A DNA stretch of 32,000 bases from Delftia acidovorans NBRC 14950 (GCF_001598795.1 NZ_BCZP01000005.1:150001-182000); one strand, 5' to 3'; positions 1,225-18,395 are shown, numbered from the stretch's first letter. Numbers and translations: made by a program. The notes: a model not told the origin generated them from the sequence alone.

Positions 1225-2187
1225 TCAGGCCGCCAGCGGCTCGGGCACCGTGATGTCCACGCTGTGGCGGCCGTCCACGCTGGTGGCCACGGTGCCGGTC
1301 ACGGTGACGCGGCGCACCACGCGGTGGGCATCGCCGTAGTCGTTGATGGCGTAGTGCTGCGTGGCGCGGTTGTCCCAGATGGCCACGTCGCCCTGCGCCC
1401 ATTGCCAGCGCACGGTGTTCTCCAGCCGGATGATGCGTTCGTTGAACAGCTGCAGCAGCGCCGTCGATTCATTGGCGCGCAGGCCCTTGATGCGCTTGGC
1501 GAAGTGGCCCAGCAGCAGCGCCTTCTCTCCGGTCTCGGGGTGCACATGCACCAGCGGCTGCTCCGACTCGATGGTCTTGCGCGTGAACACCTTGCGGTAG
1601 CTGGCGCGGCCTGCGGTCTCGGTCTGGCTGGCCGCGTTCTGGCGGAAGTTCTCGGCGTAGTCGTAGTCGTTGCCATGCACGGCCCACAGCTGCTCGGCCA
1701 GTTGCCTGAGCGGCTCGGGCAGGCCCTCATAGGCGGCCACGGTATTGGCCCAGACGGTGTCGCCGCCATGGCCGGGCAGCGTGACGGCGCGCAGCACGCA
1801 GACCTTGGGAAAGGCCGCCTTGAAGGTGACATCGGTATGCCAGGAATCGGCGCGGCCGCCATGCTGGGAATTGAGCTCCAGAAAGGCCGTGCCGTCCGGG
1901 GCAGGCACGGTGGGGTGCGATTCGATCTCGCCGAACAGCCGCCCGAAGGCCTGGTGCGATGCATCCGTCAGATGGTGCTGGCCCCGGAAGAACAGCACGC
2001 GGTGGCGCAGCAGGGCCGAATGGATCTGCGTGAACTGTTCGGCCGCCAGCTCGCCCGACAGCCTGGCGCCGTGGACCACGGCGCCTATGCGGCCGGACAG
2101 GGGCTGGATCTGCAGCGGCTGTTGCCGGTCCTGCTCCAGGTCTTGGGCCACGGTGCTCAGGTGGCTGGCTTCGGTGACAGCGTTCAC
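1225..2187 (-). CDS. TauD/TfdA family Fe(II)/2-oxoglutarate dioxygenase
   Basis: This is the C-terminal 320 aa of the artefactual 1017 aa ORF 1225..4278. It contains WHTDVTF (the HxD iron ligands) and a DNRATQHYA distal His/Arg region typical of taurine-dioxygenase-like enzymes. On the reverse strand a GTG at 2187 is preceded by GAGGAGA with a 6 nt spacer. An alternative ATG lies at 2211. Confidence 0.8.
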   Translation of the reverse strand: MNAVTEASHLSTVAQDLEQDRQQPLQIQPLSGRIGAVVHGARLSGELAAEQFTQIHSALLRHRVLFFRGQHHLTDASHQAFGRLFGEIESHPTVPAPDGTAFLELNSQHGGRADSWHTDVTFKAAFPKVCVLRAVTLPGHGGDTVWANTVAAYEGLPEPLRQLAEQLWAVHGNDYDYAENFRQNAASQTETAGRASYRKVFTRKTIESEQPLVHVHPETGEKALLLGHFAKRIKGLRANESTALLQLFNERIIRLENTVRWQWAQGDVAIWDNRATQHYAINDYGDAHRVVRRVTVTGTVATSVDGRHSVDITVPEPLAA

Positions 2188-2364
2188 GGTGTCTCTCCTC
2201 AGTGCTTGCATGGGTGGAAGTCCCCATGCTAGGAACCGCCCTGCCACGCCACAACGAAGCTTTTGGCGCATGGTTATGCGCAAGACAAGTGCATGCCAAC
2301 CGGGGCTGTGCGCGTCACAAAACTGCAACAAGGAAAACGTAACATTCCTTAACAATTTTGCGAT

Positions 2365-3606
2365 GTGCCTTCCATGGATGAGTCCCGCGCCTACCTGAGC
2401 GATTCCAGGCCACGTTTCCGCCCACCCAGCGCAGCGGACCTGTGTACCCCCGTTCCCTGCATGACCGCCGACGAGACCAACGAGAAGGTGCTCGAGGTCT
2501 TCACGCGCCACCGGGACCTGATCAGCCTGCCCGTGGTGGAGGGCAACCGCCCCATCGGCCTGATCAACCGCAGCATCTTCCTGTCCCAGTTCAGCAAGCC
2601 GTTTCGCATGGAGCTGTACGGCAAGAAGAGCTGCATCGCCTTCATGGACAAGGAGCCGCTGGTGGTCGATGCCTCCACCGACATAGACACCCTGACCGTG
2701 AAGACCGTGGAGTACGGCGAAAAGGCGCTGACCGATGGCTTCATCATCACGCGCGACGGCCTGTTCGCGGGCGTGGGCAACGGTCTGCAGCTGATGCGCG
2801 CGGTGGCGGACATGCAGGTGGCGCGCAACCGCCAGATCATGCACAGCATCGAATACGCCAGCGTGATCCAGCAGTCGCTGCTGCGCAGCTCGCGCGACTC
2901 CCTGGCCCGCGCCTGCCCCGGGGCCGACCTGGTCTGGGAGCCGCGCGATGTGGTCGGCGGCGACTTCTACCAGTTCAGCCAGGACGGTGATGGCTGGTTT
3001 GCCACCGTGGCCGATTGCACGGGCCACGGCGTGCCCGGCGCCTTCATGACGCTGATCGCCACCAGCAGCCTGAGCCAGGCCATCAAGGAGCACGGCCCGC
3101 GCGACCCGGCCGCGCTGCTGGGCCATGTGAACCGCAGCGTCAAGCAGATGCTGGGCCAGCTCGACGGCAAGGATGGCACGCCGGGCTCCGACGACGGGCT
3201 GGACGCGGCCTGCTTCTGGTTCGAGCACGCGCACCGGCGCCTGCGCTTTGCAGGCGCGCGCCTTGCGCTGTTCGTGCTGCGCCCCGGCGCCGAGGCGGTG
3301 GAGGTGCTCGATGGCCAGCGCAAGGGCGTGGGCTATGTGGACAGCGAGTTCGACTTCGCCTGGAACAACATCGACCTGGAACTGCCCGCAGGCACCCTGG
3401 TCTTCATCACCACCGACGGCCTGATCGACCAGGTCGGCGGCCCGCGCGGCATCACCTTCGGCAAGAAGCGCGTGCGCGAGCTGCTGCTGGAGCAGGCCGG
3501 CCACACGCCCGCCGAGATCAACCGCGCCCTGCTGGCCGCCCTGCAGGCCTGGCAGGGCGAGCACCACCGCCGCGACGACCTGACCTTTTTCTGCTTCAGA
3601 ACCTGA
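2365..3606 (+). CDS. CBS-pair / PP2C (SpoIIE-type) serine-threonine phosphatase, SiaA-like position
   Basis: ORF 2365..3606 (GTG start; alternative ATG at 2374). The N-terminal ~130 aa look like a CBS pair (DLCTPVPCMTADETNEKVLEVF...LPVVEGNRPIGLINRSIF...EPLVVDASTDIDTL...GFIITRDGLFAGV). PP2C motifs are present: VVGGDFYQF, VADCTGHGVPGAFM and FITTDGLIDQ. I see no hydrophobic transmembrane segment. Confidence 0.85.
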   Translation: MPSMDESRAYLSDSRPRFRPPSAADLCTPVPCMTADETNEKVLEVFTRHRDLISLPVVEGNRPIGLINRSIFLSQFSKPFRMELYGKKSCIAFMDKEPLVVDASTDIDTLTVKTVEYGEKALTDGFIITRDGLFAGVGNGLQLMRAVADMQVARNRQIMHSIEYASVIQQSLLRSSRDSLARACPGADLVWEPRDVVGGDFYQFSQDGDGWFATVADCTGHGVPGAFMTLIATSSLSQAIKEHGPRDPAALLGHVNRSVKQMLGQLDGKDGTPGSDDGLDAACFWFEHAHRRLRFAGARLALFVLRPGAEAVEVLDGQRKGVGYVDSEFDFAWNNIDLELPAGTLVFITTDGLIDQVGGPRGITFGKKRVRELLLEQAGHTPAEINRALLAALQAWQGEHHRRDDLTFFCFRT

Positions 3607-4188
3607 ATGCCTCCCATGCCCTCCGCACAGATCGCCGACAAGTACGGCAGCTTCTTCCACCTGGCGCGCCAGCACCAGGTGATCTTCTACTACGTGGGCT
3701 ACTTCTCGCAGAACATCGTCGCGGCCATGGCCGAGGCCGTGCGGCTGCAGCTGGAAGTGGCCGGCGTGCCGGGCCCCACGCGGCGCAAGCTGTTCTCGTC
3801 CTTTGTCGAGATGGCGCAGAACATCATCCATTACTCGGCCGATGCCCTGACCCCGCCCCACCAGGACGATGGCGAGCTGCGCCACGGCGCGGTCTGCATC
3901 CGCCGCGAGGACGACGGCAGCTTCGTGCTGCTGTGCGCCAACCCCATCGAGCCGGGCATGGGCGAGGCACTGCGCGCCAAGCTCGACGCCCTGCGCAGCA
4001 TGACGCTGGACGAAATCAAGAAGGCCTGCCGCCAGTCGCTGCGCGATGACGCGCCCGAAGGCAGCAAGGGCGCGGGCATGGGTTTCCTGACCCTGGCCCG
4101 CGATGCGCGCGAGCCGCTGCAGTTCGACTTCGATCCCGCCCAGACCGTGGACGGCCGGCCCGTCTTCTACCTGAAAGCCACGCTCTGA
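3607..4188 (+). CDS. siaB: SiaB-like protein kinase (partner-switch kinase)
   Basis: 193 aa ORF whose ATG immediately follows the phosphatase stop (TGAATG). The C-terminal KGAGMGFLTLARDA segment resembles the glycine-rich ATP-lid of anti-sigma-type kinases. The gene sits between a PP2C and a DUF1987 gene, as siaB does in the P. aeruginosa siaABCD operon. Context weighs as heavily as sequence in this call. Confidence 0.65.
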   Translation: MPPMPSAQIADKYGSFFHLARQHQVIFYYVGYFSQNIVAAMAEAVRLQLEVAGVPGPTRRKLFSSFVEMAQNIIHYSADALTPPHQDDGELRHGAVCIRREDDGSFVLLCANPIEPGMGEALRAKLDALRSMTLDEIKKACRQSLRDDAPEGSKGAGMGFLTLARDAREPLQFDFDPAQTVDGRPVFYLKATL

Positions 4189-4256
4189 GCCGTCGCTCCG
4201 GCACCAGGCCTGGACAGGCCCGGCCCGCAGGCACGGACAACGCACCGAGATCACGC

Positions 4257-4658
4257 ATGGACAACCTCTACATCGCACCGACTCCCAGTTCCCCGGAAGT
4301 GGACTTCCAGTTCGACACGCACACGCTGCACCTGCGTGGCGAGTCCTATCCCGAGAACGCCGCCGCCTTCTATGGCGGCATCCTGGCCCGCCTCAAGGAC
4401 TACCTGGCCCAGCCGCAGCCGGCGCAGCAGCAGGCGCGCATCGAGGTGCACATCGCGCTGGCCTACTTCAACAGCTCCAGCACCAAGATGCTGTTCAACC
4501 TGATCGAGGCACTGAGCGGCGCCGCCGAGGCCGGCCGCCCCGTGGCCCTGCACTGGTACCACGACGAGGAAGACGACACCATCTGCGAGTTTGGCGAGGA
4601 GCTGCGCGACGACTTTCCCGCCATCGCCTTCACCGGCCACCCCGTGAAGGCGGCGTGA
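4257..4658 (+). CDS. siaC: DUF1987 / SiaC-like regulatory phosphoprotein
   Basis: 133 aa. MDNLYIAPTPSSPEVDFQFDTHTLHLRGESYPENAAAFYGGIL...AYFNSSSTKMLFNLIEAL is the characteristic DUF1987 layout, including the Ser/Thr-rich YFN(S/T)SS(S/T)K segment that holds the phospho-acceptor in SiaC. Confidence 0.8.
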   Translation: MDNLYIAPTPSSPEVDFQFDTHTLHLRGESYPENAAAFYGGILARLKDYLAQPQPAQQQARIEVHIALAYFNSSSTKMLFNLIEALSGAAEAGRPVALHWYHDEEDDTICEFGEELRDDFPAIAFTGHPVKAA

Positions 4659-5398
4659 TGGACACCGTGGCCGCTCCCGCGGACCTCTTCGATGCCGAGC
4701 ACCAGGCCCTTTTGGCGGCCCGCGCCGCCCACGACCGGGGCGAAGAAGCCGGCGCCCAGGCCTGCCACCAGGCCCTGGGCGTGCTGCTGACCGCCTATGA
4801 GCGCCTGCTGCGCGAAACGCGCCGGCTGGTGCGCCGCAGCGACCGGGCCGAGCTGGAGATGACCCAGCTCAACCAGCGCCTGCAGGACCTGGCCGGCGAG
4901 CTGGAATACCGCGCCACGCACGACCCGCTGACCGGCGTGCTCAACCGCGCGGCCATCATCGAGCGCGTGAACCGCCACTTCACCCAGCAGGGGCTGGCCC
5001 TGATCGTGCTGGACATAGACCACTTCAAGCGCGTGAACGACAGCTTCGGCCACCCCGTGGGCGACAGCGTGATCCTGGGCGTGGTGCGCTGCCTCAAGGC
5101 CGCCGTGCCGGCCACCGCCCACATCGGCCGCGTGGGCGGCGAGGAATTCACCGTGCTGCTGCCCCAGCACGACAGCGACGGCGCCGTGTGCGTGGCCGAG
5201 CAGGTGCGCGCCGCCATCGAGGCCCATCCCTTTGGCCTGCCCGACGCCAGCTGCATCACGGCCAGCTTCGGCGTGAGCTGGCGCCCGAGCGGCGGCCGCT
5301 TCGACGACGCCTACAGCCTGGCCGACGAGGCGCTGTACGCCGCCAAGCGCAGCGGGCGCAACCAGGTCGTGCGCGCGGCAGACCATGCCACGGCCTGA
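4658..5398 (+). CDS. siaD: GGDEF diguanylate cyclase with N-terminal coiled-coil stalk (SiaD-like)
   Basis: The ATG at 4658 shares one base with the upstream TGA (TGATG). Motifs: HDPLTGVLNR, DIDHFKRVNDSFGHPVGD and an intact GGEEF. There is no RxxD five residues upstream of GGEEF (the sequence is ATAHIGRVGGEEF), so no canonical I-site. Confidence 0.9.
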   Translation: MDTVAAPADLFDAEHQALLAARAAHDRGEEAGAQACHQALGVLLTAYERLLRETRRLVRRSDRAELEMTQLNQRLQDLAGELEYRATHDPLTGVLNRAAIIERVNRHFTQQGLALIVLDIDHFKRVNDSFGHPVGDSVILGVVRCLKAAVPATAHIGRVGGEEFTVLLPQHDSDGAVCVAEQVRAAIEAHPFGLPDASCITASFGVSWRPSGGRFDDAYSLADEALYAAKRSGRNQVVRAADHATA

Positions 5399-5426
5399 GC
5401 GGCGCGGACACAGACAGGGCTGAGGC

Positions 5427-7685
5427 ATGAGTTTCGTGATGCGCGCACGGGCGCCCAGGGCGCCCGCCCCTGCTTCCGCCCTCCTGCAGCCGGCTCTGCA
5501 GCCGCCCCCGCCATCGCCCGTGCCCGGGCCTGAATGGCGGGTGCTGATCGTGGACAGCGACCCCGACGTACACGCCGCCTTCCGCCTGGCGCTGGAAGGC
5601 CACAGCCTGTTCGGCCGGCCGCTGGTGTTCCTCTACGCCCGCTCCGGCACACAGGCGCGCAATCTGCTGCGCAGCGAGCAGGACCTGGCCGTGGTGGTGC
5701 TCGACGCCGTGACCGACGGCACGGGCGCCGGCCTGGACCTGGTGGACTTCATCCGCTACACGGCCGGCCTGCGCAACAGCCGCATCGTGCTGCGCACCGG
5801 CCGCCCGGGCCAGGCGCCCGATCTGGAAACCCTGCTGCGCTACGACATCAACGACTGCCGCACCAAGACCGAACTCACGCCCGACCGGCTGCTGGCCATC
5901 GTGGTGACCGCCGTGCGCTCCTACGAGCAGCTGTGCGCCATCGAGGCCAACCGCCGCAGCCTGGAGCTGATGGTGCGCTCCAGCGCCTCGCTGCTGGAGG
6001 AAACCAATCTGCACGCCTTCGCGCGGGGCGTGATCACCCAGCTGGCCACCTTGCTGGGCGTGGCCAGCGAAGGCCTGGTCTGCTCGGAGGGAACGCACCC
6101 GGCCGAGCCCTACCGCGTGCTCGCAGCCACGGGACCATTCGCCCGGCTCATCGACCAGCCCATCGCCACCGTGCTGGCCTCGCGCGGGCTGCGCCTGCTG
6201 CGCCAGGCGCTGCAGGCGCGGCGCAACATCTACGGCGTGCAGCGCGGCGTGGCGCTGTACATCGGCCGGGGCGACGAGCAGGACATGGCCGTCTTCATCG
6301 ACGCACCGGCCTCGCACAGCGCACTGGACCGCCAGCTGCTCGAAGTCTTCTGCGCCAACCTGCGCACGCTGCTGCACAACCGCGGCCTGCTGGAGCGCCT
6401 GCACCAGTCCGCCTACTTCGACCCGCTGGTCTGCCTGCCCAATCGCGCCCACTTCGTGGAAAAAGTGGACGAATGCGTGTGGCGCGGCACGCGTGACCAT
6501 GTGCTGGCCCTGGTGGACATCGACGACTTCAGCGCCACCAACGACGTGATGGGCCACCGCTTTGGCGACCGCCTGCTCGAAGCCATGGCCCGCCGCCTGG
6601 CCAGCGCGCTGCCCGCAGGCGTGCTGCTGGCGCGCGTGGGATCGGACACCTTCGGCATCCTGGGCCCCACCGACGAGGTGGCCCTGGCCCAGTTGCTGGA
6701 CTGCGCCCGCCAGCCGCTGGCCGTGGACGGCGTGCCGCACAAGGTCTCGCTGACCTGCGGCTACGTGTACCTGCCCCATGAGCGCCAGGCCGGCACCGAC
6801 CTGGTCAAGGACGCCACCATCGCCCTCAAGCGCGCCAAGCGCGATCACCGCGGCCAGCTGCTGGAGTACTCCGAGCAGATGGGCATGGAGGCGCGCGACC
6901 GCGCCCTGCTGCTGTCCGACCTGCGCGCTGCCATCGACGGCGCCCAGCTTTTCCTGGTCTACCAGCCCCAGGTGGACCTGGAAACCCATGCCCTGGTCGG
7001 CCTGGAGGCCCTGCTGCGCTGGCGCCGGCAGGACGGCAGCTTCGTGCCGCCCGACCGCTTCATTCCGGTGGCCGAACATTCGGGCCTCATCGTGCCGCTG
7101 GGCCAATGGGTGCTGGCCACGGCCTGCCGCACCATGCGCGAACTGCTGGACGCCGGCCGCGCCCCCAGGCGCATGGCCGTCAATGTCTCCACCGTGCAGC
7201 TGCAGGACCCGGGCTTTCTGCAGACCGTGAGCAACGCCCTGGCAGAGCACGGCCTGCAGGGCGCGCAGCTGGAGCTGGAGATCACCGAATCCGTCGCGGT
7301 CCTGCCCACCCAGCTGCTGCAGGCCACGCTCAGCGCCCTGCGCTCCCTGGGCGTGACCATTGCCATCGACGACTTCGGCACCGGCTATTCCTCGCTGAGC
7401 TACCTGGAGCGCCTGCCGCTGGACCGCATCAAGATCGACCGCAGCTTCGTGCGCCAGCTTGGCGAATCACAGGAAGCGCGCATCGCCGAAATGATCGCCC
7501 AGCTGGGCCGCAAGCTCGGCCTGCAGGTCCTGGCCGAAGGCATAGAGGACGCCAGCGCCTGGCAGGCCCTGCGCGCCATGGGCTGCCAGGAGGGACAGGG
7601 CTATCACGTTGCCCGGCCCATGGACAAGGAGCAGTTGCTGGGCTGGCTGCACCGGCGCACCGGAGTGAATGGCGCGCCGGAGTGA
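5427..7685 (+). CDS. REC-like / DUF3369 / degenerate GGDEF / EAL c-di-GMP phosphodiesterase
   Basis: 752 aa. The receiver-like N-terminus reads RVLIVDSDPDV...VVVLDAVTDG...IVLRTGRPG...DINDCRTKTEL. The GGDEF-fold domain has GSDTF in place of GG(D/E)EF. The EAL set is complete: EALLRW, MAVNVS, ELEITES, IAIDDFGTGYSSLSYL, KIDRSFV, LAEGIED and QGYHVARP. Confidence 0.9.
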   Translation: MSFVMRARAPRAPAPASALLQPALQPPPPSPVPGPEWRVLIVDSDPDVHAAFRLALEGHSLFGRPLVFLYARSGTQARNLLRSEQDLAVVVLDAVTDGTGAGLDLVDFIRYTAGLRNSRIVLRTGRPGQAPDLETLLRYDINDCRTKTELTPDRLLAIVVTAVRSYEQLCAIEANRRSLELMVRSSASLLEETNLHAFARGVITQLATLLGVASEGLVCSEGTHPAEPYRVLAATGPFARLIDQPIATVLASRGLRLLRQALQARRNIYGVQRGVALYIGRGDEQDMAVFIDAPASHSALDRQLLEVFCANLRTLLHNRGLLERLHQSAYFDPLVCLPNRAHFVEKVDECVWRGTRDHVLALVDIDDFSATNDVMGHRFGDRLLEAMARRLASALPAGVLLARVGSDTFGILGPTDEVALAQLLDCARQPLAVDGVPHKVSLTCGYVYLPHERQAGTDLVKDATIALKRAKRDHRGQLLEYSEQMGMEARDRALLLSDLRAAIDGAQLFLVYQPQVDLETHALVGLEALLRWRRQDGSFVPPDRFIPVAEHSGLIVPLGQWVLATACRTMRELLDAGRAPRRMAVNVSTVQLQDPGFLQTVSNALAEHGLQGAQLELEITESVAVLPTQLLQATLSALRSLGVTIAIDDFGTGYSSLSYLERLPLDRIKIDRSFVRQLGESQEARIAEMIAQLGRKLGLQVLAEGIEDASAWQALRAMGCQEGQGYHVARPMDKEQLLGWLHRRTGVNGAPE

Positions 7686-7703
7686 AGGCGCCCTGTCGCC
7701 CGT

Positions 7704-9227
7704 TCACGGCAGATGGGGCGCTATCACCTCGGCCAGCAGGCCGAAGCTGTGGCGGATCTCCTGCTCCGTCACGGCTCCGTAGCCCAGCACCAGGCCCCGG
7801 GCCGGATCGGGCCTGAGCGAGTACAGGGACAGCGGCCGCGTGAGAACGCCCAGCTTGCGTGCCTGCCGCGCAATGGCGTCATCGTCCGAGCCGGGCGGCA
7901 GGCCCAGCACCAGGTGCAGCCCCGCGTCTCCGCCCTGCACGGTCACCGCCGTGCCCAGGCGCTGGCCTATCTCGTCGATGAGCACGCGCCGGCGCTCGCC
8001 ATAGACCTGGCGCATGCGGCGGATGTGGTTGACGTAGTGGCCCTGCCGCATGAACTGCGCCAGCACGATCTGCTGCATGATCTGCCCCTCCCGGAACAGC
8101 TCGCTCAGCGCGCGCGCAAAGCTGTCGGCCAGGTCGCTGGGCAGCACGAGGTAGGCCAGCCGCAGCGATGGAAACATGGTCTTGGAGAAGGTGCCCAGGT
8201 AGATCACGCGGCCATGCTCGTCCAGGCCCTGCAGCGCCGGCAGCGGGCGCGAGGTGAAGCGGAACTCGCTGTCGTAGTCGTCCTCGACGATCCAGACCCG
8301 CTGGGCCACCGCGTAGTCCAGCAGCTGGCGCCTTCGGCCATGGCCCATGAGCACGCCGCTGGGGTACTGGTGCGAGGGCGAGATGAACATCAGCCGCGGC
8401 GGTGTCTTCAGTTGCTGCGGCGTGGGCGCCAGGCCCTCGCCGTCCAGCGCGATGGGCTGCAGTTGCAGGCCGGCCATGCGGAACACGCTGCGTGCGCCCC
8501 AGTAGCCGGGGTCCTCCAGCCAGACGGTGTCGCCAGGATCGGCCAGCAGCTGGGAAATCAGGTGCAGCGCCTGCTGGGCGCCGCTGGTCACCAGGATCTG
8601 GTCCGCGCTGCAGGCCACGCCGCGCGTGCCCTGCAAGTGCTCGGCAATGGCTTCGCGCAGCGCGGGATGGCCTGCGCCCGTGGCATAGCTCAGTTGCAGC
8701 GGGTTGTGATCGCGCCAGGCCTGGGCGTGCAGGCGGCTCCATAGCGCGGCCGGAAACTGGCGCAGCTCGGGCACGCCCGGCGCGAAGGCGCCCCACTGCA
8801 GGTGGCTGGCCCGCGCCCCGCTCACGATGGCGCTGCCGCGCCGCGACAGCGGCGTGCCACGGCGGCGCGGCAACGGCGGCTGGCTCACGAAGGCCGGCGC
8901 CACCTCGGCCACATAGGTGCCCCGCCCCACGCCGGCCTGCACCAGGCCCTCCAGCGCCAGTTGCTCATAGACCTGGACGATGGTGTTGCGCGCAATGCCC
9001 AGCGTCTGCGCCAGCTCGCGGCTGGTGGGCAGCCGCGAGCCCGCCGGCAGGGCCTTGCGCAGGATGCCTTCCTTGACGATGCGGTAGAGCTGGCGGTGGT
9101 TATACTCGGCATCGCTACGTTGGAAATGCCGATTGACAAAGTCCGGCAGCGTGGCACTTCCAACGCGGGAAATTGGTTCTCTTTTGTTCACGGTATTTGG
9201 TTCTTTTGTTGGGATCAATGTGAACAT
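7704..9227 (-). CDS. MocR/GabR-family PLP-dependent aminotransferase-like transcriptional regulator
   Basis: GntR-type winged helix-turn-helix (SRLPTSRELAQTLGIARNTIVQVYEQLALEGLV) followed by a fold-type-I aminotransferase domain with the PLP-lysine context LGTFSKTMFPSLRLAYLV. The start is uncertain. I chose ATG 9227; GTG 9299 and the in-frame GTG at 9191 (VNKREP...) are alternatives. The first ~45 codons are unusually AT-rich and contain a direct repeat. Confidence 0.85.
   Translation of the reverse strand: MFTLIPTKEPNTVNKREPISRVGSATLPDFVNRHFQRSDAEYNHRQLYRIVKEGILRKALPAGSRLPTSRELAQTLGIARNTIVQVYEQLALEGLVQAGVGRGTYVAEVAPAFVSQPPLPRRRGTPLSRRGSAIVSGARASHLQWGAFAPGVPELRQFPAALWSRLHAQAWRDHNPLQLSYATGAGHPALREAIAEHLQGTRGVACSADQILVTSGAQQALHLISQLLADPGDTVWLEDPGYWGARSVFRMAGLQLQPIALDGEGLAPTPQQLKTPPRLMFISPSHQYPSGVLMGHGRRRQLLDYAVAQRVWIVEDDYDSEFRFTSRPLPALQGLDEHGRVIYLGTFSKTMFPSLRLAYLVLPSDLADSFARALSELFREGQIMQQIVLAQFMRQGHYVNHIRRMRQVYGERRRVLIDEIGQRLGTAVTVQGGDAGLHLVLGLPPGSDDDAIARQARKLGVLTRPLSLYSLRPDPARGLVLGYGAVTEQEIRHSFGLLAEVIAPHLP
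9173..9210. promoter_or_regulatory. direct repeat TTGGTTCT(CT)TTTGTT x2, candidate MocR operator / promoter element
   Basis: TTGGTTCTCTTTTGTT at 9173-9188 and TTGGTTCTTTTGTT at 9197-9210 are identical apart from a 2 nt indel and are offset by 22-24 bp. They lie in the most AT-rich patch of the window, at the 5' end of the MocR ORF. MocR/GabR-type regulators are known to bind direct repeats. A functional role here is inference only. Confidence 0.3.
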
Positions 9228-10387: not shown

Positions 10388-13291
10388 ATGACATCCCGCC
10401 CCCCGACCGAAACGCGCGCCCGTGCCTCCCTCAGCCGCCACCGCAGCGTCTGGGAAATGCGTGCCGATGGCTGGATCAGCCTGGTGGACGATCTCAGCCG
10501 GCTGGCCATCCTGGCGCCCGAGCACCTCGAGCGTGCCAGCCGCCTGGCCCATGTGCAGACCATCATCGACGCGCTGGCCCCGGTCGAAAGCTACTGGGCC
10601 TTTCCCGGGGGCCGGGTCTTCGGTGAGCTGTGCCAGTGGATAGAGCGCGAGGAGCTGGCGCGCGCGCACCAGGCGGCGCGGCGCATCCACCGCGTGCTGG
10701 CTGCGCGCACCTACCGCCATGACGCCAACACGCTGGACAACGACAACGAACTGCCCTCGCAGATAGAGACCGACAGCGAGCGCCAGGCGCAGCTGACGCG
10801 GCCTTACTTCGAGGTGCTGATCGTCGACGAGATGTCGGCCAGCGAGGAAGACGCGCTGCGCCGCCGCGTGCAGCGCAAGCGCAGCGCCGACGATGATTTC
10901 GTGTTCGACATCGTGGTGGTGCCCAGCTTCGAGGACGCGCTGATCGCCACCCTGGTCAACTTCAACCTGCAGGCCGTGGTGATACGCCACGGCTTTCCAT
11001 TCCGCTCGGTCAACAGGAACGGCATGCTGCGCCGCTTCCTGGAAGGCATGGACGACAACAGCGAGGCCATGCCCGAGTTCGAGCGCGGCCCGCTGCTGGG
11101 CCGCCAGATCGCGCAGCTGCGCCCCGAGCTGGATCTGTACCTGGTCACCGATGTCAGCGTCGAGGAGATCGCCGCGCGCGTGGGCGAGGTCTTCAAGCGC
11201 ATCTTCTTCGGCGAGGAAGACCACATCGAGCTGTACAGCGCCATCATGAAAGGCGTGGGCGAGCGCCACAGGACGCCCTTCTTCCACGCGCTGCGCGACT
11301 ACGCCAAGCAGCCCACGGGCGTGTTCCACGCGCTGCCGCTGGCGCGCGGCAAGTCCATCATGAACAGCAACTGGATCGGGGACCTGGCCCAGTTCTACGG
11401 CATGAACCTGTTCATGGCCGAGACCTCGGCCACCTCGGGCGGGCTGGACTCGCTGCTGGACCCCGTGGGCCCGCTCAAGCTGGCCCAGGAGTACGCGGCC
11501 CGCGCCTTCGGTGCCAGGCGCACCTACTTCGCCACCAACGGCACCTCCACCTGCAACAAGATCGTGGTGCAGGCCCTGGTGCGGCCCGACGACATCGTGC
11601 TGGTGGACCGCAACTGCCACAAGTCCCACCACTACGGCCTGGTGCTGGCCGGCGCCCAGGTGGCCTACCTGGACTCCTATCCGCTGGACCAGTACTCCAT
11701 GTACGGCGCCGTGCCGCTGCGCCACATCAAGGAGACCCTGCTGGGCTTTCGGCGCGCGGGCACGCTGGAGCGCGTGCGCATGGTGCTGCTGACCAACTGC
11801 ACCTTCGACGGCATCGTCTACGACGTGGAGCGCGTGATGACGGAATACCTGGCCATCAAGCCCGACCTGGTCTTCCTCTGGGACGAGGCCTGGTTCGCCT
11901 TCGCGCGCTGCCATCCCATCTACCGCCCGCGCACGGCCATGGCCAGCGCCGCCAAGCTGTGCGAGACCTTCAAGGACCCGGCCTACGCCAGGCGCCACGC
12001 CGAGTTCGCCGCCAGCATCGACTGGGAGGACGACCAGCAGTTGCTGGAGACCCGGCTGATCCCCGACCCCGCCAAGGCCCGGATCCGGGTCTACGCCACG
12101 CATTCCACGCACAAGACGCTGACGGCGCTGCGCCAGGGCTCGATGATCCATATCTGGGACCAGGACTTCAAGGACAAGGCCGAGGAGTCCTTCCACGAGG
12201 CGTACATGACGCACACCTCGACCTCGCCCAACTACCAGATCCTCGCCTCGCTGGACGTGGGCCGCCGCCAGGTGGAGCTGGAGGGCTACGAGCTGATCCA
12301 GCGTCAGCTGGAGCTGGCCATGAGCCTGCGCGAGCAGGTGCTGCACCACCCACTGCTCAAACGCTACTTCCGCTTCCTGCGCATCGGCGACCTGGTGCCG
12401 CTGGCCTACCGCGAGTCGGGCGTGGACAACTACTACAACGACGAGACGGGCTGGGACAACCTGGAGGTGGCATGGCGCAGCGACGAGTTCGTGCTCGACC
12501 CCAGCCGCGCCACCCTGGTCATCGGCACCACGGGCATGGACGGCGACACCTTCAAGAACAAGGAGTTGATGGACAGGTACGGCATCCAGATCAACAAGAC
12601 CTCGCGCAACACCGTGCTCTTCATGACCAACATCGGCAGCACGCGCTCGGCCATCGCCTACCTGATCGAGGTGCTGATCAAGATTGCCCGCGACGTGGAC
12701 GCCCGCGTGGCCGACCTGAGCGCCATCGAGCGGCGCATCCATGAAAGGCGCGTGCGCTCGCTCACGCTGGAGCAGCCGCCGCTGCCCAATTTCTCCAGCT
12801 TCCACTTCGCCTTCCGGGGCCGCAGCGTCGAAGGCCGCGCAGGCACGCGCGACGGCGACATCCGCAGCGCCTTCTTCCTCTCGTACGACGACACCAACTG
12901 CGAATACATCGACATGGCCGAGGCCGCGTGCGCCATCGCCGAGGGGCGCGAGCTGGTGTCCGCGCTCTTCGTCATCCCCTACCCGCCGGGCTTTCCCATC
13001 CTCGTGCCCGGGCAGGTGATCAGCGCCGAGATCCTGCAGTTCATGGCTGCGCTCGATGTGCGCGAGATCCACGGCTTCCGGCCCGAGCTGGGCTTTCGCA
13101 TCTTCAGCCGGGCCGCGCTGGACCGCGCCGCCCAGGCCACGGCCGCGCGCGCCGCGCTGGCGCTGTCGGGCCGCGCGGCGCAGCCGCAGGCGGGCGACGA
13201 AGGCCTGGGCCTGGTCCGACCCGAGCCCGAACCTGAACTGATCACGCTTTCCCCCACCCCGAAGAAGACCACGACGAGGAGCAAGAAGTGA
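10388..13291 (+). CDS. oversized Orn/Lys/Arg-type (fold type I) PLP-dependent decarboxylase with wing domain, N-terminal extension and low-complexity tail
   Basis: 967 aa, with AGGAGA upstream of the ATG. It has a CheY-like wing (YFEVLIVDEMSASEED...VVIRHGFPF), TPFFHALRDYAKQP, NGTSTCNKIVVQAL and the PLP-lysine motif THSTHKTLTALRQGSMIH. The C-terminus AAQPQAGDEGLGLVRPEPEPELITLSPTPKKTTTRSKK is low complexity. Substrate cannot be called from sequence. Confidence 0.85.
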   Translation: MTSRPPTETRARASLSRHRSVWEMRADGWISLVDDLSRLAILAPEHLERASRLAHVQTIIDALAPVESYWAFPGGRVFGELCQWIEREELARAHQAARRIHRVLAARTYRHDANTLDNDNELPSQIETDSERQAQLTRPYFEVLIVDEMSASEEDALRRRVQRKRSADDDFVFDIVVVPSFEDALIATLVNFNLQAVVIRHGFPFRSVNRNGMLRRFLEGMDDNSEAMPEFERGPLLGRQIAQLRPELDLYLVTDVSVEEIAARVGEVFKRIFFGEEDHIELYSAIMKGVGERHRTPFFHALRDYAKQPTGVFHALPLARGKSIMNSNWIGDLAQFYGMNLFMAETSATSGGLDSLLDPVGPLKLAQEYAARAFGARRTYFATNGTSTCNKIVVQALVRPDDIVLVDRNCHKSHHYGLVLAGAQVAYLDSYPLDQYSMYGAVPLRHIKETLLGFRRAGTLERVRMVLLTNCTFDGIVYDVERVMTEYLAIKPDLVFLWDEAWFAFARCHPIYRPRTAMASAAKLCETFKDPAYARRHAEFAASIDWEDDQQLLETRLIPDPAKARIRVYATHSTHKTLTALRQGSMIHIWDQDFKDKAEESFHEAYMTHTSTSPNYQILASLDVGRRQVELEGYELIQRQLELAMSLREQVLHHPLLKRYFRFLRIGDLVPLAYRESGVDNYYNDETGWDNLEVAWRSDEFVLDPSRATLVIGTTGMDGDTFKNKELMDRYGIQINKTSRNTVLFMTNIGSTRSAIAYLIEVLIKIARDVDARVADLSAIERRIHERRVRSLTLEQPPLPNFSSFHFAFRGRSVEGRAGTRDGDIRSAFFLSYDDTNCEYIDMAEAACAIAEGRELVSALFVIPYPPGFPILVPGQVISAEILQFMAALDVREIHGFRPELGFRIFSRAALDRAAQATAARAALALSGRAAQPQAGDEGLGLVRPEPEPELITLSPTPKKTTTRSKK

Positions 13292-14745
13292 ACAACAAAG
13301 TCAAAAGCGTTGCCGACCTGCTGCTGATGTTCCACCGCAACGAGCGGCCCATCTACTTCATCAGCGCCACCAACTTCAACCTGCTGGGCATGGACCGCTG
13401 GGTCAACCGCTTCCGCTACATCAACTACATCGACTGCTTCGACGGCCGCCACCCCAACGCTTTCGTGCCGCAGGAGCTGCCGCACGAGCCCTTCGAGTCC
13501 ATCGAGGACATCAACAACTATCTGCTGCAGCACAAGGACGTGGTGGACCTGATCGAGCGGCGCGGCGGCAAGCCGGTCGCCACCTTCCTGATGTTCGACG
13601 AGAAGACCGAGGCCCTGGCCCGGGAGCTGGGCATGGAGGTCTGGTTTCCGCCAGCCGCGCTGCGCCAGCGCTGCGACAACAAGATGGAGACCGTGCGCAT
13701 AGGCAACAAGGCCGGCGTCTACTCGGTGCCCAACGCGCTGGAGAAGGTGGACAGCTACGAGCACCTGATGCAGATCGCCGAACGCCACGGCCTGGGCAAG
13801 GACCTGGTGGTGCAGTCGGCCTTCGGCGACTCGGGCCACACCACCTTCTTCATCGCCTCGCGCGAGGACTTCGACAAGCACAAGGACGAGATCGTCAACG
13901 ACCCCGAGGTCAAGATCATGAAGCGCATCAACTGCCGCGGCGCCACGCTGGAGGCCTGCGCCACCCAGTCGGGCACCCTGGTCGGGCCGCTGCTGACCGA
14001 GGTGGTGGGCGCGCGCGAACTCACGCCCTACAAGGGCGGCTGGTGCGGCAACGAGGTGTTCCCGGGCGCCTTCTCCGAGGAGGTGCGCGCCAGGGCGCGC
14101 GACATGGCTGAGCGCTTCGGCAACCAGTTGCTGGCCGAGGGCTACCGCGGCTACTTCGACCTGGACTTCCTGATCGACACCGACACCGGCGAGGTCTACC
14201 TGGGCGAGCTGAACCCGCGCATCTGCGGCGCCAGCCCCATGACCAACCATGCCGCCTTCGCCTACGCCGATGCGCCGCTGTTCCTGTTCCACCTGCTCGA
14301 ATTCTCGGGCGTGCCGTTCGACCTGAACGTCAAGGAGATCAACGAGCGCTGGGCCCAGCCGCATTTCATCGACTCCTGGTCTCAGGTGGTGCTCAAGTTC
14401 AACGAGGACCGCATCGACCAGGTCACGCATGCTCCGGCCACCGGCATCTACCGCATGGGCGAGGACGGCAGCGTCGCCTACCAGCGCTTCGACTACAACC
14501 GCAAGGCCATAGACACCGAGCGCGAGGCCTTCTTCCTGCGCATCACCGGCCCCGGCGACTACCGCTACGAGGGCGCCGACCTGGGCATCCTGATCACGCG
14601 CGGCCGCTCGATGGACGACAACTTCAAGCTCAACATCCGGGCGCGCGACTGGATACGCGGCATCAAGAACTACTACGCAGGCAAGCCCGTCCTGGCCACC
14701 CAGCCCGGCGCAGCACCGGCGCCGGGCTCGTTCAAGATCCTCTGA
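13288..14745 (+). CDS. ATP-grasp domain ligase (uncharacterised subfamily)
   Basis: 485 aa. The GTG start overlaps the decarboxylase stop (GTGA at 13288-13291). ATP-grasp signatures: LVVQSAFGDSGHTTFFI and GYFDLDFLIDTDTGEVYLGELNPRICGAS (the E-x-N Mg/ATP motif). Codon bias is clean. Confidence 0.8.
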   Translation: MNNKVKSVADLLLMFHRNERPIYFISATNFNLLGMDRWVNRFRYINYIDCFDGRHPNAFVPQELPHEPFESIEDINNYLLQHKDVVDLIERRGGKPVATFLMFDEKTEALARELGMEVWFPPAALRQRCDNKMETVRIGNKAGVYSVPNALEKVDSYEHLMQIAERHGLGKDLVVQSAFGDSGHTTFFIASREDFDKHKDEIVNDPEVKIMKRINCRGATLEACATQSGTLVGPLLTEVVGARELTPYKGGWCGNEVFPGAFSEEVRARARDMAERFGNQLLAEGYRGYFDLDFLIDTDTGEVYLGELNPRICGASPMTNHAAFAYADAPLFLFHLLEFSGVPFDLNVKEINERWAQPHFIDSWSQVVLKFNEDRIDQVTHAPATGIYRMGEDGSVAYQRFDYNRKAIDTEREAFFLRITGPGDYRYEGADLGILITRGRSMDDNFKLNIRARDWIRGIKNYYAGKPVLATQPGAAPAPGSFKIL

Positions 14746-14755
14746 AGGCAATCCC

Positions 14756-15766
14756 ATGCCCTTGTCCATGCCTTCCCGCATCCGCTTCCAGGCCATCGCC
14801 GAAGACCTGCCCGGCCGGAAATGGCAGGCCCTGTGCGAGCAGGCCTGGCCCTACTACCGGGCCTGGTTCCTGCGCCAGGGCGCGGTGGCGCGCGCCGGCT
14901 TCCTGGAGTGCCGCCGCGCCCTGCGCCAGCACATGCCGGAACTGGTGCCTACCTGGGAGCGGCTGGTGGAGCTGGCCGGCGGCGGCGACATCGAGGCGCG
15001 CTTCCTGTCGCTGTGGTGCCCGCCGCCCTACATCACCGGCTGCTCCCAGGCCGTCTGGCTCGATGCGGTGGGCCAGCAGGAACCCATGCTGCTGCGCAAC
15101 TACGACTTCGCGCCCGCGCTGCTGGAGGGCCACTGGCTGGCCACGCGCTGGAGCGGGCAGCGCGTGGCCGCCATGGGCGACTGCCTGTGGGGCGCACTGG
15201 ACGGCATGAACGAGTCGGGCCTGGCCGCCTCGCTGTCCTTCGGCGGCCGCACGGCCCATGGCGACGGCTTCGGCATTCCGCTGGTGCTGCGCTATGTGCT
15301 GGAGATTGCGCAGGACACCGCATCGGCCGTGGCCATCCTGCAGCGCGTGCCCGTGCACATGTGCTACAGCGTCACGCTGCTGGACGCCCGGGGCGAATGG
15401 GCCACGGTGTTCCTGAACCCCGACCGCCCCGTGGAAGTGACCCGGCGCCGGGCCGTGACCAACTTCCAGCACACGGTGGAATGGCCCGAGCATGCACGCG
15501 CCACCAGCGCCTGCGAGCGGCTGGCCGCCCTGCAGCAGCAGATCGAAGCCGGCACGCCGGCCAGCGACACGCAGGCCGCGCTGCTGCGCGAGCCCCTGTA
15601 CCAGCCCGCCTGGCGGCGCGGATACGGAACGCTGTACACGGCCGCCTATGCGCCAGGAGCAGGCCGCATCGAGCTGTCGTGGCCGGGCCAGACCTGGCTC
15701 CAGAGCCTGCACGCCTTCGAGGAAGGCCAGCGCGAAATCGCCTACCCGGGCCAGCGCCCGCCGTGA
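14756..15766 (+). CDS. C45-family Ntn hydrolase / acyl-CoA:6-aminopenicillanic-acid acyltransferase-like protein
   Basis: 336 aa, starting 10 bp after the ATP-grasp stop. YITGCSQAVW offers the Gly-Cys autoprocessing and nucleophile site typical of peptidase family C45. The LLRNYDF and GMNESGLA segments fit the family as I remember it. Confidence 0.7.
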   Translation: MPLSMPSRIRFQAIAEDLPGRKWQALCEQAWPYYRAWFLRQGAVARAGFLECRRALRQHMPELVPTWERLVELAGGGDIEARFLSLWCPPPYITGCSQAVWLDAVGQQEPMLLRNYDFAPALLEGHWLATRWSGQRVAAMGDCLWGALDGMNESGLAASLSFGGRTAHGDGFGIPLVLRYVLEIAQDTASAVAILQRVPVHMCYSVTLLDARGEWATVFLNPDRPVEVTRRRAVTNFQHTVEWPEHARATSACERLAALQQQIEAGTPASDTQAALLREPLYQPAWRRGYGTLYTAAYAPGAGRIELSWPGQTWLQSLHAFEEGQREIAYPGQRPP

Positions 15767-15812
15767 GCGGACCCCGCGCGCCAGGCCCCTGCATGCGCCG
15801 GCGCAGGTCCAG

Positions 15813-15870
15813 CCTCTTGCCTCTTGCCTCTTGCCTCTTGCCTCTTGCCTCTTGCCTCTTGCCTCTTGCC
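15813..15870. repeat. perfect heptanucleotide tandem repeat (CCTCTTG) x8 plus CC
   Basis: Counted directly. The units are 15813-19, 20-26, 27-33, 34-40, 41-47, 48-54, 55-61 and 62-68, then CC. The repeat is intergenic, 47 bp after the C45 stop and 36 bp before the symporter ATG. Confidence 0.97.
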
Positions 15871-15905
15871 ACACATACACGACGACTACCAAAGGAGACA
15901 TGGAA

Positions 15906-17222
15906 ATGACAAGAAAACTTCCGCCCGCCATCTGGATTCTGGTTGCCATGGTGCTGGGCATCGTGATCGGCTACATGGTGTTCATCAACTTTCCCGACAA
16001 GAAGGCGGCCGCGCAGATCGCGGGCTACATCTCCATCATGTCGGACGTGTTCCTGCGGCTGATCAAGATGCTGATCGGCCCGCTGGTGTTCTCCACGCTG
16101 GTGGTGGGCATCGCGCACATGGGCGATGCGGCCTCGGTGGGCCGGGTGTTCCTCAAGGCCATGGGCTGGTTCGTCACCGCCTCGCTGGTGTCGCTGGTCA
16201 TGGGCCTGGTCCTGGCCAACGTGCTGCAGCCGGGCCACAACCTGGGGCTGCCGCTGCCGGACATCGGCGCTTCGGCCAACCTCGCCACCGCCAAGTTCAC
16301 GCTCAAGGACTTCGTCAGCCACCTGGTGCCCAAGTCCTTTGCCGAGGCCATGGCCAACAACGAGATCCTGCAGATCGTGGTGTTCTCCATGTTCTTCGGC
16401 GTGGCCCTGGCCGCGCTCGGTGAAAAGGGCAGGACGCTGGTGGCCGCCATCGACGAGCTGTCCCACGTCATGCTCAAGATCACCGGCTATGTGATGAAGC
16501 TCGCGCCGCTGGCCGTGCTGGCGGCCATGGCGGCCACCGTGTCGGTCAACGGCCTGGAGATCCTGCTGAAGTTCGCCGTCTTCATGGGGGACTTCTACCT
16601 GGGCCTGTTTCTGCTGTGGGGCGTGCTGGTGATCGCCGGTTTCCTGTTCCTGGGCCCGCGCATCTTCAGGCTGCTGGTGCTGATCAAGGAGGCCTTCATG
16701 CTGTCGTTCGCCACCGCCAGCTCCGAGGCCGCCTACCCCAAGATCCTGGACGCGCTGGACCGCTTCGGCGTCAAGCGCAAGATCTCCAGCTTCGTGATGC
16801 CCATGGGCTACTCGTTCAACCTCGACGGCTCCATGATGTACTGCACCTTCGCCGTGCTGCTCATCGCCCAGGCCTACGACATCCACCTGTCGCTGGGCAC
16901 GCAGATCACCATGCTGCTGATCCTGATGCTGACCTCCAAGGGCATGGCCGGCGTGCCGCGCGCCTCGCTGGTGGTGATCGCCGCCACGCTCAACCAGTTC
17001 AACATCCCCGAGGCCGGCCTGCTGCTCATCCTGGGCGTGGACACCTTCCTGGACATGGGCCGCTCGGCCACCAACGCCGTGGGCAACTCCATCGCCACCG
17101 CCGTCGTCGCCAAGTGGGAGGGCGACCTGCTGCCCGAGACCGAAGCCGCCGCCAACGCCGCACGGCTGGATTCGGAGGCCAGGGCCGCGCTGGCCCATCC
17201 CGCCTCCCCGGCCCATTCCTGA
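15906..17222 (+). CDS. dicarboxylate/amino acid:cation symporter (DctA/GltP, DAACS family)
   Basis: MTRKLPPAIWILVAMVLGIVIGY... with the family motifs SFATASSEAAYP, MPMGYSFNLDGS, LTSKGMAGVPRASL and GRSATNAVGNSIATAVVAKWEG. The AAGGAG RBS lies 8 nt upstream of ATG 15906. ATG 15900 is too close to that RBS. The rest of ORF 15492..17222 is a spurious extension through the repeat. Confidence 0.9.
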   Translation: MTRKLPPAIWILVAMVLGIVIGYMVFINFPDKKAAAQIAGYISIMSDVFLRLIKMLIGPLVFSTLVVGIAHMGDAASVGRVFLKAMGWFVTASLVSLVMGLVLANVLQPGHNLGLPLPDIGASANLATAKFTLKDFVSHLVPKSFAEAMANNEILQIVVFSMFFGVALAALGEKGRTLVAAIDELSHVMLKITGYVMKLAPLAVLAAMAATVSVNGLEILLKFAVFMGDFYLGLFLLWGVLVIAGFLFLGPRIFRLLVLIKEAFMLSFATASSEAAYPKILDALDRFGVKRKISSFVMPMGYSFNLDGSMMYCTFAVLLIAQAYDIHLSLGTQITMLLILMLTSKGMAGVPRASLVVIAATLNQFNIPEAGLLLILGVDTFLDMGRSATNAVGNSIATAVVAKWEGDLLPETEAAANAARLDSEARAALAHPASPAHS

Positions 17223-17243
17223 CAACCCGCACAAGGAAACGCC

Positions 17244-18275: not shown

Positions 18276-18395
18276 GGCGGTTACTGCCTGCACCCATTGC
18301 ACGCCGGATGGCGCCTCGCCTGGCCTCGCTCTGCGCACGGCATGCAGCACGCGGGTCGCGCCCACTTTGCAACAGCAAATACAAGGAGACAAGAA

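Follow-up and report, generated by a model that had tools for sequence, protein, structure and literature searches.

What does a Sia-type partner switch respond to when its phosphatase lacks a membrane sensor? The question is raised by a short run of genes in Delftia acidovorans NBRC 14950, which lies in a stretch of 32,000 nucleotides (nt) (GCF_001598795.1, NZ_BCZP01000005.1:150001-182000; hereafter the window). In Pseudomonas aeruginosa, the Sia mechanism has been established experimentally (PMC7278518, PMC7647112, PMC8457831), and its phosphatase SiaA is described as a two-transmembrane HAMP protein (PMC7647112, PMC12834913), as a first-pass annotation of the window had stated. The signal of SiaA, long listed as unknown, has recently been attributed to membrane perturbation (PMC7278518, PMC12834913). 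The same annotation took the Delftia genes for a Sia-type module of cyclic di-GMP (c-di-GMP) synthesis in which a soluble pair of CBS motifs stands in for the membrane/HAMP sensor, and guessed at an adenosyl ligand. Our analysis supports this interpretation except for the ligand guess. We propose that the locus encodes a partner switch of the Sia type that works in the cytoplasm and tunes a diguanylate cyclase, with the CBS pair as its input, a reading whose probability we put at roughly 0.75.

Analysis of open reading frames (ORFs) places four co-directional genes on the + strand within 2374-5398 of the window (G+C ~69%), encoding proteins of 410, 193, 133 and 246-247 amino acids (aa). These genes, and the elements within them on which the argument turns, are as follows.

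2374..3606, + strand: siaA-like gene, CBS pair + linker helix + PP2C, 410 aa (Pfam, NCBIfam, PDB, AlphaFold2, Foldseek)
2431-2781, + strand: CBS pair, about residues 20-136 (AlphaFold2/Foldseek)
2782-2913, + strand: linker helix, residues 137-180 (AlphaFold2)
2914-3603, + strand: PP2C domain, residues 181-410 (PDB/Foldseek match to SiaA-PP2C)
3607..4188, + strand: siaB-like gene, SiaB-family protein kinase, 193 aa (NF038262, DUF6272, PDB match)
4257..4658, + strand: siaC-like gene, DUF1987/SiaC phosphoprotein, 133 aa (PF09345, PDB matches)
4464-4487, + strand: YFNSSSTK segment, residues 70-77 of the SiaC-like protein (sequence; alignment to SiaC)
4473-4475, + strand: codon of the predicted acceptor Ser73 (aligned with P. 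aeruginosa SiaC Thr68)
4655..5398, start GTG 4655 or ATG 4658, + strand: siaD-like gene, stalk + GGDEF diguanylate cyclase, 246-247 aa (Pfam, PDB match)
4832-4846, + strand: stalk motif RRSDR, core S62-D63-R64 (multi-locus alignment)
within 5108-5134, + strand: PATA in place of the RxxD I-site (multi-locus alignment)
5135-5149, + strand: GGEEF, cyclase residues 161-165 (sequence)

The A-B-C-D order on one strand matches siaABCD (PA0172-PA0169), as had been pointed out, and is kept in related loci; it recurs in every such locus examined, and the arrangement is more than chance. The genes had also been described as touching or overlapping. This is true of the first junction (TGAATG, 3604-3609), where the phosphatase-gene stop TGA (3604-3606) abuts ATG 3607, and of the third (GTGATG, 4655-4660), where the siaC-like stop TGA (4656-4658) overlaps both ATG 4658, within the reported 4656-4660 overlap, and GTG 4655, but not of the siaB-like/siaC-like junction, a 68-nt spacer (4189-4256). 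Likewise, the phosphatase ORF is present, but its start, formerly set at GTG 2365, is moved to the likely ATG 2374, because database orthologues are 410 aa long and this ATG aligns with the Acidovorax and Comamonas starts. A longer N-terminus is impossible, since 2365 is the first start codon after an in-frame stop.

To which families do the four proteins belong? Pfam and NCBIfam find, in gene order, CBS and SpoIIE domains; DUF6272 and the SiaB-family kinase; SiaC; and GGDEF. The NCBIfam equivalog models built on P. aeruginosa SiaA, SiaB, SiaC and SiaD are the top or near-top match for each protein, and the best or only PDB sequence matches are P. aeruginosa SiaA-PP2C, SiaB, SiaC and SiaD. For the phosphatase, the assignment of a SiaA-like PP2C domain holds up well: its sole PDB sequence match is SiaA-PP2C (6k4e, 4e-53), which is also the top Foldseek match (1.8e-22, template-modelling (TM) score 0.84, 38% identity), and the motifs that bind metal, VVGGDFY, DCTGHG, TDGLIDQ and RRDD, are retained and line up with those of SiaA. 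The NCBIfam SiaA model NF038263 scores 215.6 bits (cut-off 700), and only its positions 397-656 align, with query residues 143-412. SiaA homology thus begins at about residue 143, where helix 137-180 starts. The inputs have therefore been swapped precisely at the linker, one sensor taking the place of another ahead of a helix-PP2C unit that both proteins share. A CBS pair, helix and PP2C domain in this layout fit the general 'signalling helix' pattern: among the partners listed for that helix are both CBS sensors and PP2C outputs (PMC1592074).

The phosphatase was said to lack a hydrophobic segment, and indeed its highest 19-residue Kyte-Doolittle mean is 1.18, against a transmembrane threshold of 1.6; Pfam gave no HAMP match in the protein. 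We also considered a truncated membrane protein arising as an annotation artefact, which is ruled out by the in-frame stop before the start and by hundreds of 410-aa orthologues. Delftia proteins, D. acidovorans ones included, match the phosphatase at 99-100% identity, and its best 120 database matches (74-100% identity) belong to Delftia, Acidovorax, Variovorax, Comamonas, Xylophilus and relatives.

Does the N-terminus form a CBS pair, as the first-pass annotation had held and had named as a point on which its reading could fail? Pfam sees a single CBS motif (residues 24-70, 29-33 bits, cut-off 24) and gave no match to the isolated second half of the N-domain. The second motif is shown by structure, Pfam being blind to it. 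The AlphaFold2 model (mean predicted local distance difference test score 83 for the full phosphatase and 85 for the N-domain, residues 1-153) is confident over residues 20-140, with block means mostly >90, and contains two beta-alpha-beta-beta-alpha units followed by the long helix 137-180. When the N-domain model was compared with the PDB by Foldseek, the top 50 matches were all CBS-pair proteins (~135 aligned columns, TM 0.6 to 0.82), AcuB, CBSX1/2, ST2348, MJ0100, DarB and CorB among them, so that fold and Foldseek cover both motifs. Consistently, a profile of 18 family members matches only CBS proteins among PDB sequences. Across orthologues the CBS pair is conserved as well as the phosphatase domain. 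Since this pair, rather than a membrane/HAMP sensor, joins the linker helix and the PP2C domain, the input is expected to be intracellular.

SiaB-family membership of the 193-aa protein was another point on which the proposal could have failed; both points came out in its favour. The protein passes the curated model NF038262 SiaB_fam_kinase (196 bits, cut-off 85), matches DUF6272 (1.8e-36) and has P. aeruginosa SiaB as its sole PDB match (6kko_A, 1.1e-14); the strict kinase_SiaB equivalog model gives 69 bits, below its cut-off of 225. Its segment FVEMAQNIIHY corresponds in the alignment to the part of SiaB containing Glu61, the predicted catalytic residue (PMC7647112), and the glycine-rich segment SKGAGMGF is kept. 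The SiaC-like protein scores 132 bits with PF09345 (cut-off 24.5) and 79 bits with the phos_prot_SiaC equivalog model, below the cut-off of 150, and matches the SiaC entries 6kko_C and 6k4f in the PDB (6e-19). The phospho-acceptor segment YFNSSSTK is kept, as reported; the residue at the acceptor position is Ser73, not Thr. N72-S73-S74 align with SiaC N67-T68-S69, which are needed for SiaD binding (PMC8457831). The Thr68 position is Ser in all 30 of 30 CBS-type SiaC sequences, and Ser is also the commoner residue in SiaC proteins of other input types (19 Ser versus 14 Thr).

The cyclase scores 117 bits with GGDEF and 153 bits with the diguan_SiaD equivalog (cut-off 290), and its best PDB match is SiaD (7e6g_A, 2e-27), in an alignment that starts within the stalk, at residue 44. 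As stated before, its GGEEF (residues 161-165) is intact and the RxxD I-site is missing, the position reading PATA. It is through this site that P. aeruginosa SiaD is inhibited by its product (PMC8457831). Of the 23 cyclases in CBS-type loci, 22 lack RxxD, and 10 of the 11 from other-input loci have it. The multi-locus alignment, from which the number of docking motifs per stalk was taken, reveals a conserved proximal R-x-S-D-R core and no recognisable distal second 'ARISD' motif: CBS-type stalks carry one R-R-S-D-R motif, whereas Pseudomonas-type SiaD has two 'ARISD' motifs, which fit the 2:4 SiaD:SiaC complex seen in the crystal (PMC8457831). In place of the distal 'ARISD', CBS-type cyclases have a conserved N-terminal D-L-F-x-x-E-x-x-x-L segment (4682-4699 in the window), which is also found in the cyclases of loci L020 and L023. 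Subgroups of CBS-type cyclases differ by a 7-residue (one heptad) insertion or deletion in the stalk.

How might these parts work together? By analogy with P. aeruginosa, we envision that Ser73 of the SiaC-like protein receives a phosphate from the SiaB-like kinase and loses it again through the action of the CBS-PP2C protein. Unphosphorylated SiaC would then dock on the cyclase stalk at RRSDR and stabilise an active dimer, so that c-di-GMP is made, and how active the phosphatase is would depend on an intracellular cue that the CBS pair binds or senses. In Comamonadaceae, an adjacent gene for an EAL-domain phosphodiesterase probably supplies c-di-GMP turnover for a cyclase without a product-inhibition site. 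Phosphotransfer, SiaC-cyclase binding and the direction of regulation are inferred from the characterised system; each step finds support in retained residues, namely the PP2C aspartates, FVEMAQN, SKGAGMG, N72-S73-S74, S62-D63-R64 and GGEEF.

Is this locus an oddity of Delftia? A scan of species-representative genomes yielded 19 loci with a full-length CBS-PP2C match. SiaB lies directly downstream in all 19, SiaC comes next in 18 (the contig ends in the remaining one), and a stand-alone GGDEF gene follows SiaC in 14, as judged by ORFs and hidden Markov models. These loci belong to Comamonadaceae, Cupriavidus, Janthinobacterium, Duganella, Herbaspirillum, Oxalicibacterium, Paraburkholderia, Pararobbsia, Vogesella/Neisseriaceae, Phytobacter, Methylomonas, Methylobacter, Methylovulum and Ectothiorhodospira. 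Twelve further CBS-type loci, similarly arranged, came from a scan of metagenomes, and among 50%-identity representatives we found 17 further full-length CBS + PP2C clusters at 34-49% identity. The CBS-type set with readable downstream sequence comprises 30 loci (18 genome species, 11 metagenome contigs and the window). The SiaB gene directly follows the CBS-PP2C gene in 30 of 30, SiaC is present in all 29 whose contig reaches that far, and a cyclase stands directly after SiaC in 23; in a divergent 31st CBS-PP2C locus, SiaB-SiaC lie upstream instead. The CBS-type is the standard form across Burkholderiales, not a Delftia oddity, and its range takes in Burkholderiales, Neisseriales, methanotrophs and some enterobacteria.

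SiaB, SiaC and SiaD of the window share a mean identity of 50-57% with their counterparts in CBS-type loci and 23-31% with those of dCache/HAMP-type loci, which indicates that the whole module has co-diverged as a unit. A recent domain swap in Delftia is ruled out, all four proteins co-clustering with CBS-type loci of distant taxa. Neither a CBS-type Sia system nor a fusion of a CBS pair to a SiaA-type PP2C domain was found described in the literature searched; a match in a Bordetella review proved to be an unrelated GGDEF-CBS-EAL protein.

Several observations weigh against our reading of the locus. All four proteins stay below the cut-offs of the NCBIfam equivalog models for SiaA, SiaB, SiaC and SiaD and are thus to be regarded as members of the Sia families, not as orthologues of the Pseudomonas set. 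The single recognisable docking motif, compared with two in P. aeruginosa, means that stoichiometry and activation mechanism may differ from those described there. Five CBS-type loci (L013, L014, L016, L019, L111) contain SiaA, SiaB and SiaC with no adjacent cyclase, so that SiaC may have other or additional targets. Biochemical or genetic data on any CBS-type member were not found in the literature searched. A further point concerns the input itself. The ligand cleft of CBS pairs usually carries a ribose/phosphate motif, G-h-h-(T/S)-x-x-(D/N). In the window protein, this position reads GLINRSI in CBS1, which HMMER aligns against GIVTRRD of 4esy, and GVGNGLQ in CBS2. In both repeats, other residues thus stand where Thr/Ser and Asp would bind ribose, and with these canonical nucleotide-ribose-binding residues missing, it is not certain that the CBS pair senses a ligand. 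The genes that flank the five cyclase-less loci are unrelated and include those for an amine oxidase, nitrilase/GNAT proteins, an MmeI-type restriction enzyme and a cytochrome oxidase.

What, then, might the CBS pair sense? A specific function is argued for by motifs of its own, PIGLI(N/S)R, KSCIAFMDK and G-x-K-A-L-x-DGFI, which are nearly invariant from Comamonadaceae to methanotrophs. Possible inputs include a metabolite, a nucleotide or an ionic signal. The adenosyl ligand (AMP, ATP or S-adenosylmethionine (SAM)) of the first-pass annotation fares only half well: the fold neighbours include such binders, but the usual ribose-binding residues are replaced. As a special case of our reading, the pair might be an energy-charge sensor for AMP, ADP, ATP or SAM that ties c-di-GMP to adenylate or methylation status. 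We regard this as rather unlikely. In its favour, the closest fold neighbours have been solved with AMP, ADP or ATP (AcuB, CBSX2, CorB, ClC-5) or with SAM or methylthioadenosine (MJ0100), and Sia-dependent aggregation of P. aeruginosa reportedly depends on the supply of carbon and energy (PMC7647112; PMC10413115, citing Klebensberger 2006). Besides the missing ribose/phosphate-binding residues, however, other neighbours bind cyclic di-AMP (c-di-AMP; DarB, OpuCA) or Mg2+. Fold likeness does not identify the ligand, since adenylates, SAM, c-di-AMP and Mg2+ are all bound within this neighbourhood.

Alternatively, the locus might be a Sia-type switch whose CBS pair is a constitutive dimerisation or scaffold module, or responds to ionic strength or Mg2+, in which case regulation would run mainly through the kinase, gene expression or protein partners. 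This alternative, a shade less likely still, gains from the replacements in GLINRSI and GVGNGLQ, from the variability of the CBS2 position among orthologues (Q, D, E, R, S), from the Mg2+-linked CBS pairs of MgtE and CorB that stand beside nucleotide binders among the fold neighbours, and from a conserved DNA block upstream of the operon, which suggests transcriptional control as well. It has to contend with family-specific, near-invariant motifs that exceed the usual needs of simple dimerisation, with some orthologues that retain G-h-h-S-x-x-D in CBS2 (as G-L-G-S-G-L-D), and with the recognised sensor domains that fill this place in every other Sia-type phosphatase architecture found.

Least of all do we favour the very improbable idea that the SiaA/B/C trio is a general switch aimed mainly at something other than the adjacent cyclase, with SiaC targeting an unlinked partner, or the EAL protein as well, and the cyclase being constitutive or otherwise controlled: cyclase-less trios with unrelated flanks, SiaB-SiaC pairs next to class III nucleotidyl cyclase genes (L024, L027), the many pairs of other input types without an adjacent GGDEF gene and the proposal that DUF1987 proteins generally modulate adjacent proteins (PMC8457831) speak for it, but the siaC stop overlaps the cyclase start in the window, a cyclase directly follows SiaC in most CBS-type loci, the cyclase clusters with the CBS-type family, indicating co-evolution with its partners, and it retains the stalk S-D-R core that contacts SiaC Thr68, Asn67 and Ser69 in the crystal structure (PMC8457831).

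The reading of the locus as a CBS-controlled module may be taken one step further. Tentatively, and with more doubt than belief, we suggest that the CBS-type module is a distinct, widespread lineage that turns an intracellular metabolic or nucleotide signal into c-di-GMP, with a serine acceptor, a single SiaC site on each stalk, no product feedback on the cyclase and, in Comamonadaceae, a dedicated phosphodiesterase partner. If so, the single docking site predicts a 2:2 rather than a 2:4 complex, and fusions in which an EAL domain precedes the CBS-PP2C unit would mean that c-di-GMP can feed back on the phosphatase. Such fusions were seen in five proteins of 835-887 aa from the search of representatives (P0168, P0169, P0175, P0182, P0206). 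Their EAL signature is degenerate (EAF, QSI, EAK, DVY, ESY), as is DDFG, and the EAL domain may sense c-di-GMP instead of hydrolysing it. When metagenomes were scanned with these fusions as seeds, none of them was recovered, only standard CBS-type and other loci.

How exceptional is a CBS pair in this position? The genome and metagenome scans that yielded the CBS-type loci also showed PP2C proteins linked to SiaB/SiaC with dCache-HAMP inputs (the Pseudomonas and Achromobacter type), a periplasmic phosphonate-binding-like domain, CHASE5-PAS, HAMP-PAS, four cytoplasmic PAS domains, MASE1 with multiple PAS domains, a solute-binding domain with PAS, Ser/Thr kinase-AAA-GAF-PAS, and a complete histidine kinase with receiver. 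Given inputs so varied, input swapping is the norm for Sia-type phosphatases and CBS one more well-populated class. The CBS variant is less exceptional than first thought: soluble PAS inputs also exist.

Other variants depart from the standard arrangement downstream of the phosphatase. In two loci (L024:8850-10871 and L027:2014-6156), a SiaB-SiaC pair is followed by a gene for a class III adenylate/guanylate cyclase, not by a GGDEF gene, and in L027 a divergent CBS-PP2C gene and a gene for a class I cyclic-nucleotide phosphodiesterase come next. This gene order suggests that Sia-type switches also control the synthesis of cyclic AMP or cyclic GMP. In Cupriavidus sp. D384 (L003:9243-10235), one ORF fuses SiaB (DUF6272) to SiaC, that is, kinase to substrate, and in two metagenome contigs (L093:3-1349, L130:3618-6395) PP2C and SiaB matches share one ORF, sequencing errors being possible there and in L003.

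Two elements directly flank the operon.

2312..2356, + strand: conserved upstream block CGTCACAAAAC...GTAACATT...ACAA, candidate promoter/operator (Delftia/Acidovorax/Comamonas alignment)
5427..7685, + strand: gene for a protein with a receiver-like domain, DUF3369, a degenerate GGDEF (GSDTF) and an intact EAL domain (Pfam, motif check)

The upstream block ends ~18 nt before ATG 2374 and is shared with Acidovorax and Comamonas, in whose aligned upstream regions with Delftia it is the only well-conserved non-coding stretch. It has no match to the sigma-70 consensus or to Rfam, and from its conservation we regard it as a candidate promoter or operator of the operon. Across 2000-8000, no promoter-like sites were found, and a terminator scan gave two terminator-like sites, as many as expected by chance and both inside genes. 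An Rfam scan of 1500-8000 at E <= 1 detected no RNA family, so no riboswitch or leader.

The downstream gene begins 28 nt past the siaD-like stop, and we infer that the two are co-transcribed. Judging from its domains (EAL 1.4e-71, DUF3369 1.1e-45, GGDEF 2.7e-24, Response_reg weak), its product is probably a c-di-GMP phosphodiesterase, which may be the partner of the I-site-less cyclase. In Acidovorax (L001), Comamonas (L002) and a metagenome contig (L096), too, the cyclase gene has this EAL gene behind it; the other CBS-type loci do not. Farther out lie a TauD-family dioxygenase gene upstream on the opposite strand and a gene for a GntR/aminotransferase regulator downstream. The genes at 10388-19826 look like an amino-acid/polyamine cluster, with an Orn/Lys/Arg decarboxylase (10388-13291), a sodium:dicarboxylate symporter (15492-17222), a family-3 solute-binding protein (17244-18275) and an amino-acid permease (18297-19826). 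A number of further long ORFs tested on the + strand match no Pfam family, and in DNA this rich in G+C they are probably not the frame that is translated.

The CBS-type Sia system is common in genomes and mechanistically predictable; what is new is the CBS input class. It leaves the general picture of partner switching unchanged, input-domain swapping being the rule in the family. A soluble version with a small, separable sensor should be much easier to study and could show how inputs exert control through the shared linker helix. If a CBS ligand exists, it would be an intracellular cue driving c-di-GMP synthesis, and probably aggregation, of relevance to Delftia, Acidovorax, Variovorax, Paraburkholderia, Janthinobacterium and related soil, plant and opportunistic bacteria. 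That the I-site and one docking motif are consistently lost suggests that feedback and stoichiometry differ in CBS-type systems.

How does the Delftia module compare with known systems? Its CBS pair shares with AcuB, CBSX1/2, MJ0100, DarB and CorB/MgtE the same fold over both repeats and the same N-terminal regulatory place before a catalytic domain, but is only 13-22% identical to them, with the ribose residues replaced and invariant motifs of its own. In the HptB-HsbR-HsbA-HsbD system of P. aeruginosa and the BgrSTUWV-BgrR system of Sinorhizobium meliloti, a PP2C phosphatase and a kinase likewise set the phosphorylation of a small protein that binds a GGDEF enzyme and regulates it (PMC8457831). 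Those systems employ STAS antagonists and RsbW-type kinases, whereas Delftia uses DUF1987/SiaC and SiaB/DUF6272, a distinction drawn from their descriptions (PMC8457831). The closest relative is P. aeruginosa SiaABCD, which has the same order of phosphatase, kinase, phosphoprotein and cyclase, the same four families, a homologous linker helix and PP2C domain, and in common with Delftia the N-(S/T)-S triad of SiaC, the S-D-R core of the SiaD stalk and GGEEF. The two differ in input, SiaA having two transmembrane helices with dCache-like and HAMP domains where Delftia has a soluble CBS pair (PMC7647112); in the SiaC acceptor, Thr68 in P. aeruginosa and Ser in Delftia; in the cyclase, with an RxxD I-site and two 'ARISD' motifs in the former, and no I-site and one docking motif in the latter; and in the EAL phosphodiesterase gene that follows the module in Comamonadaceae.

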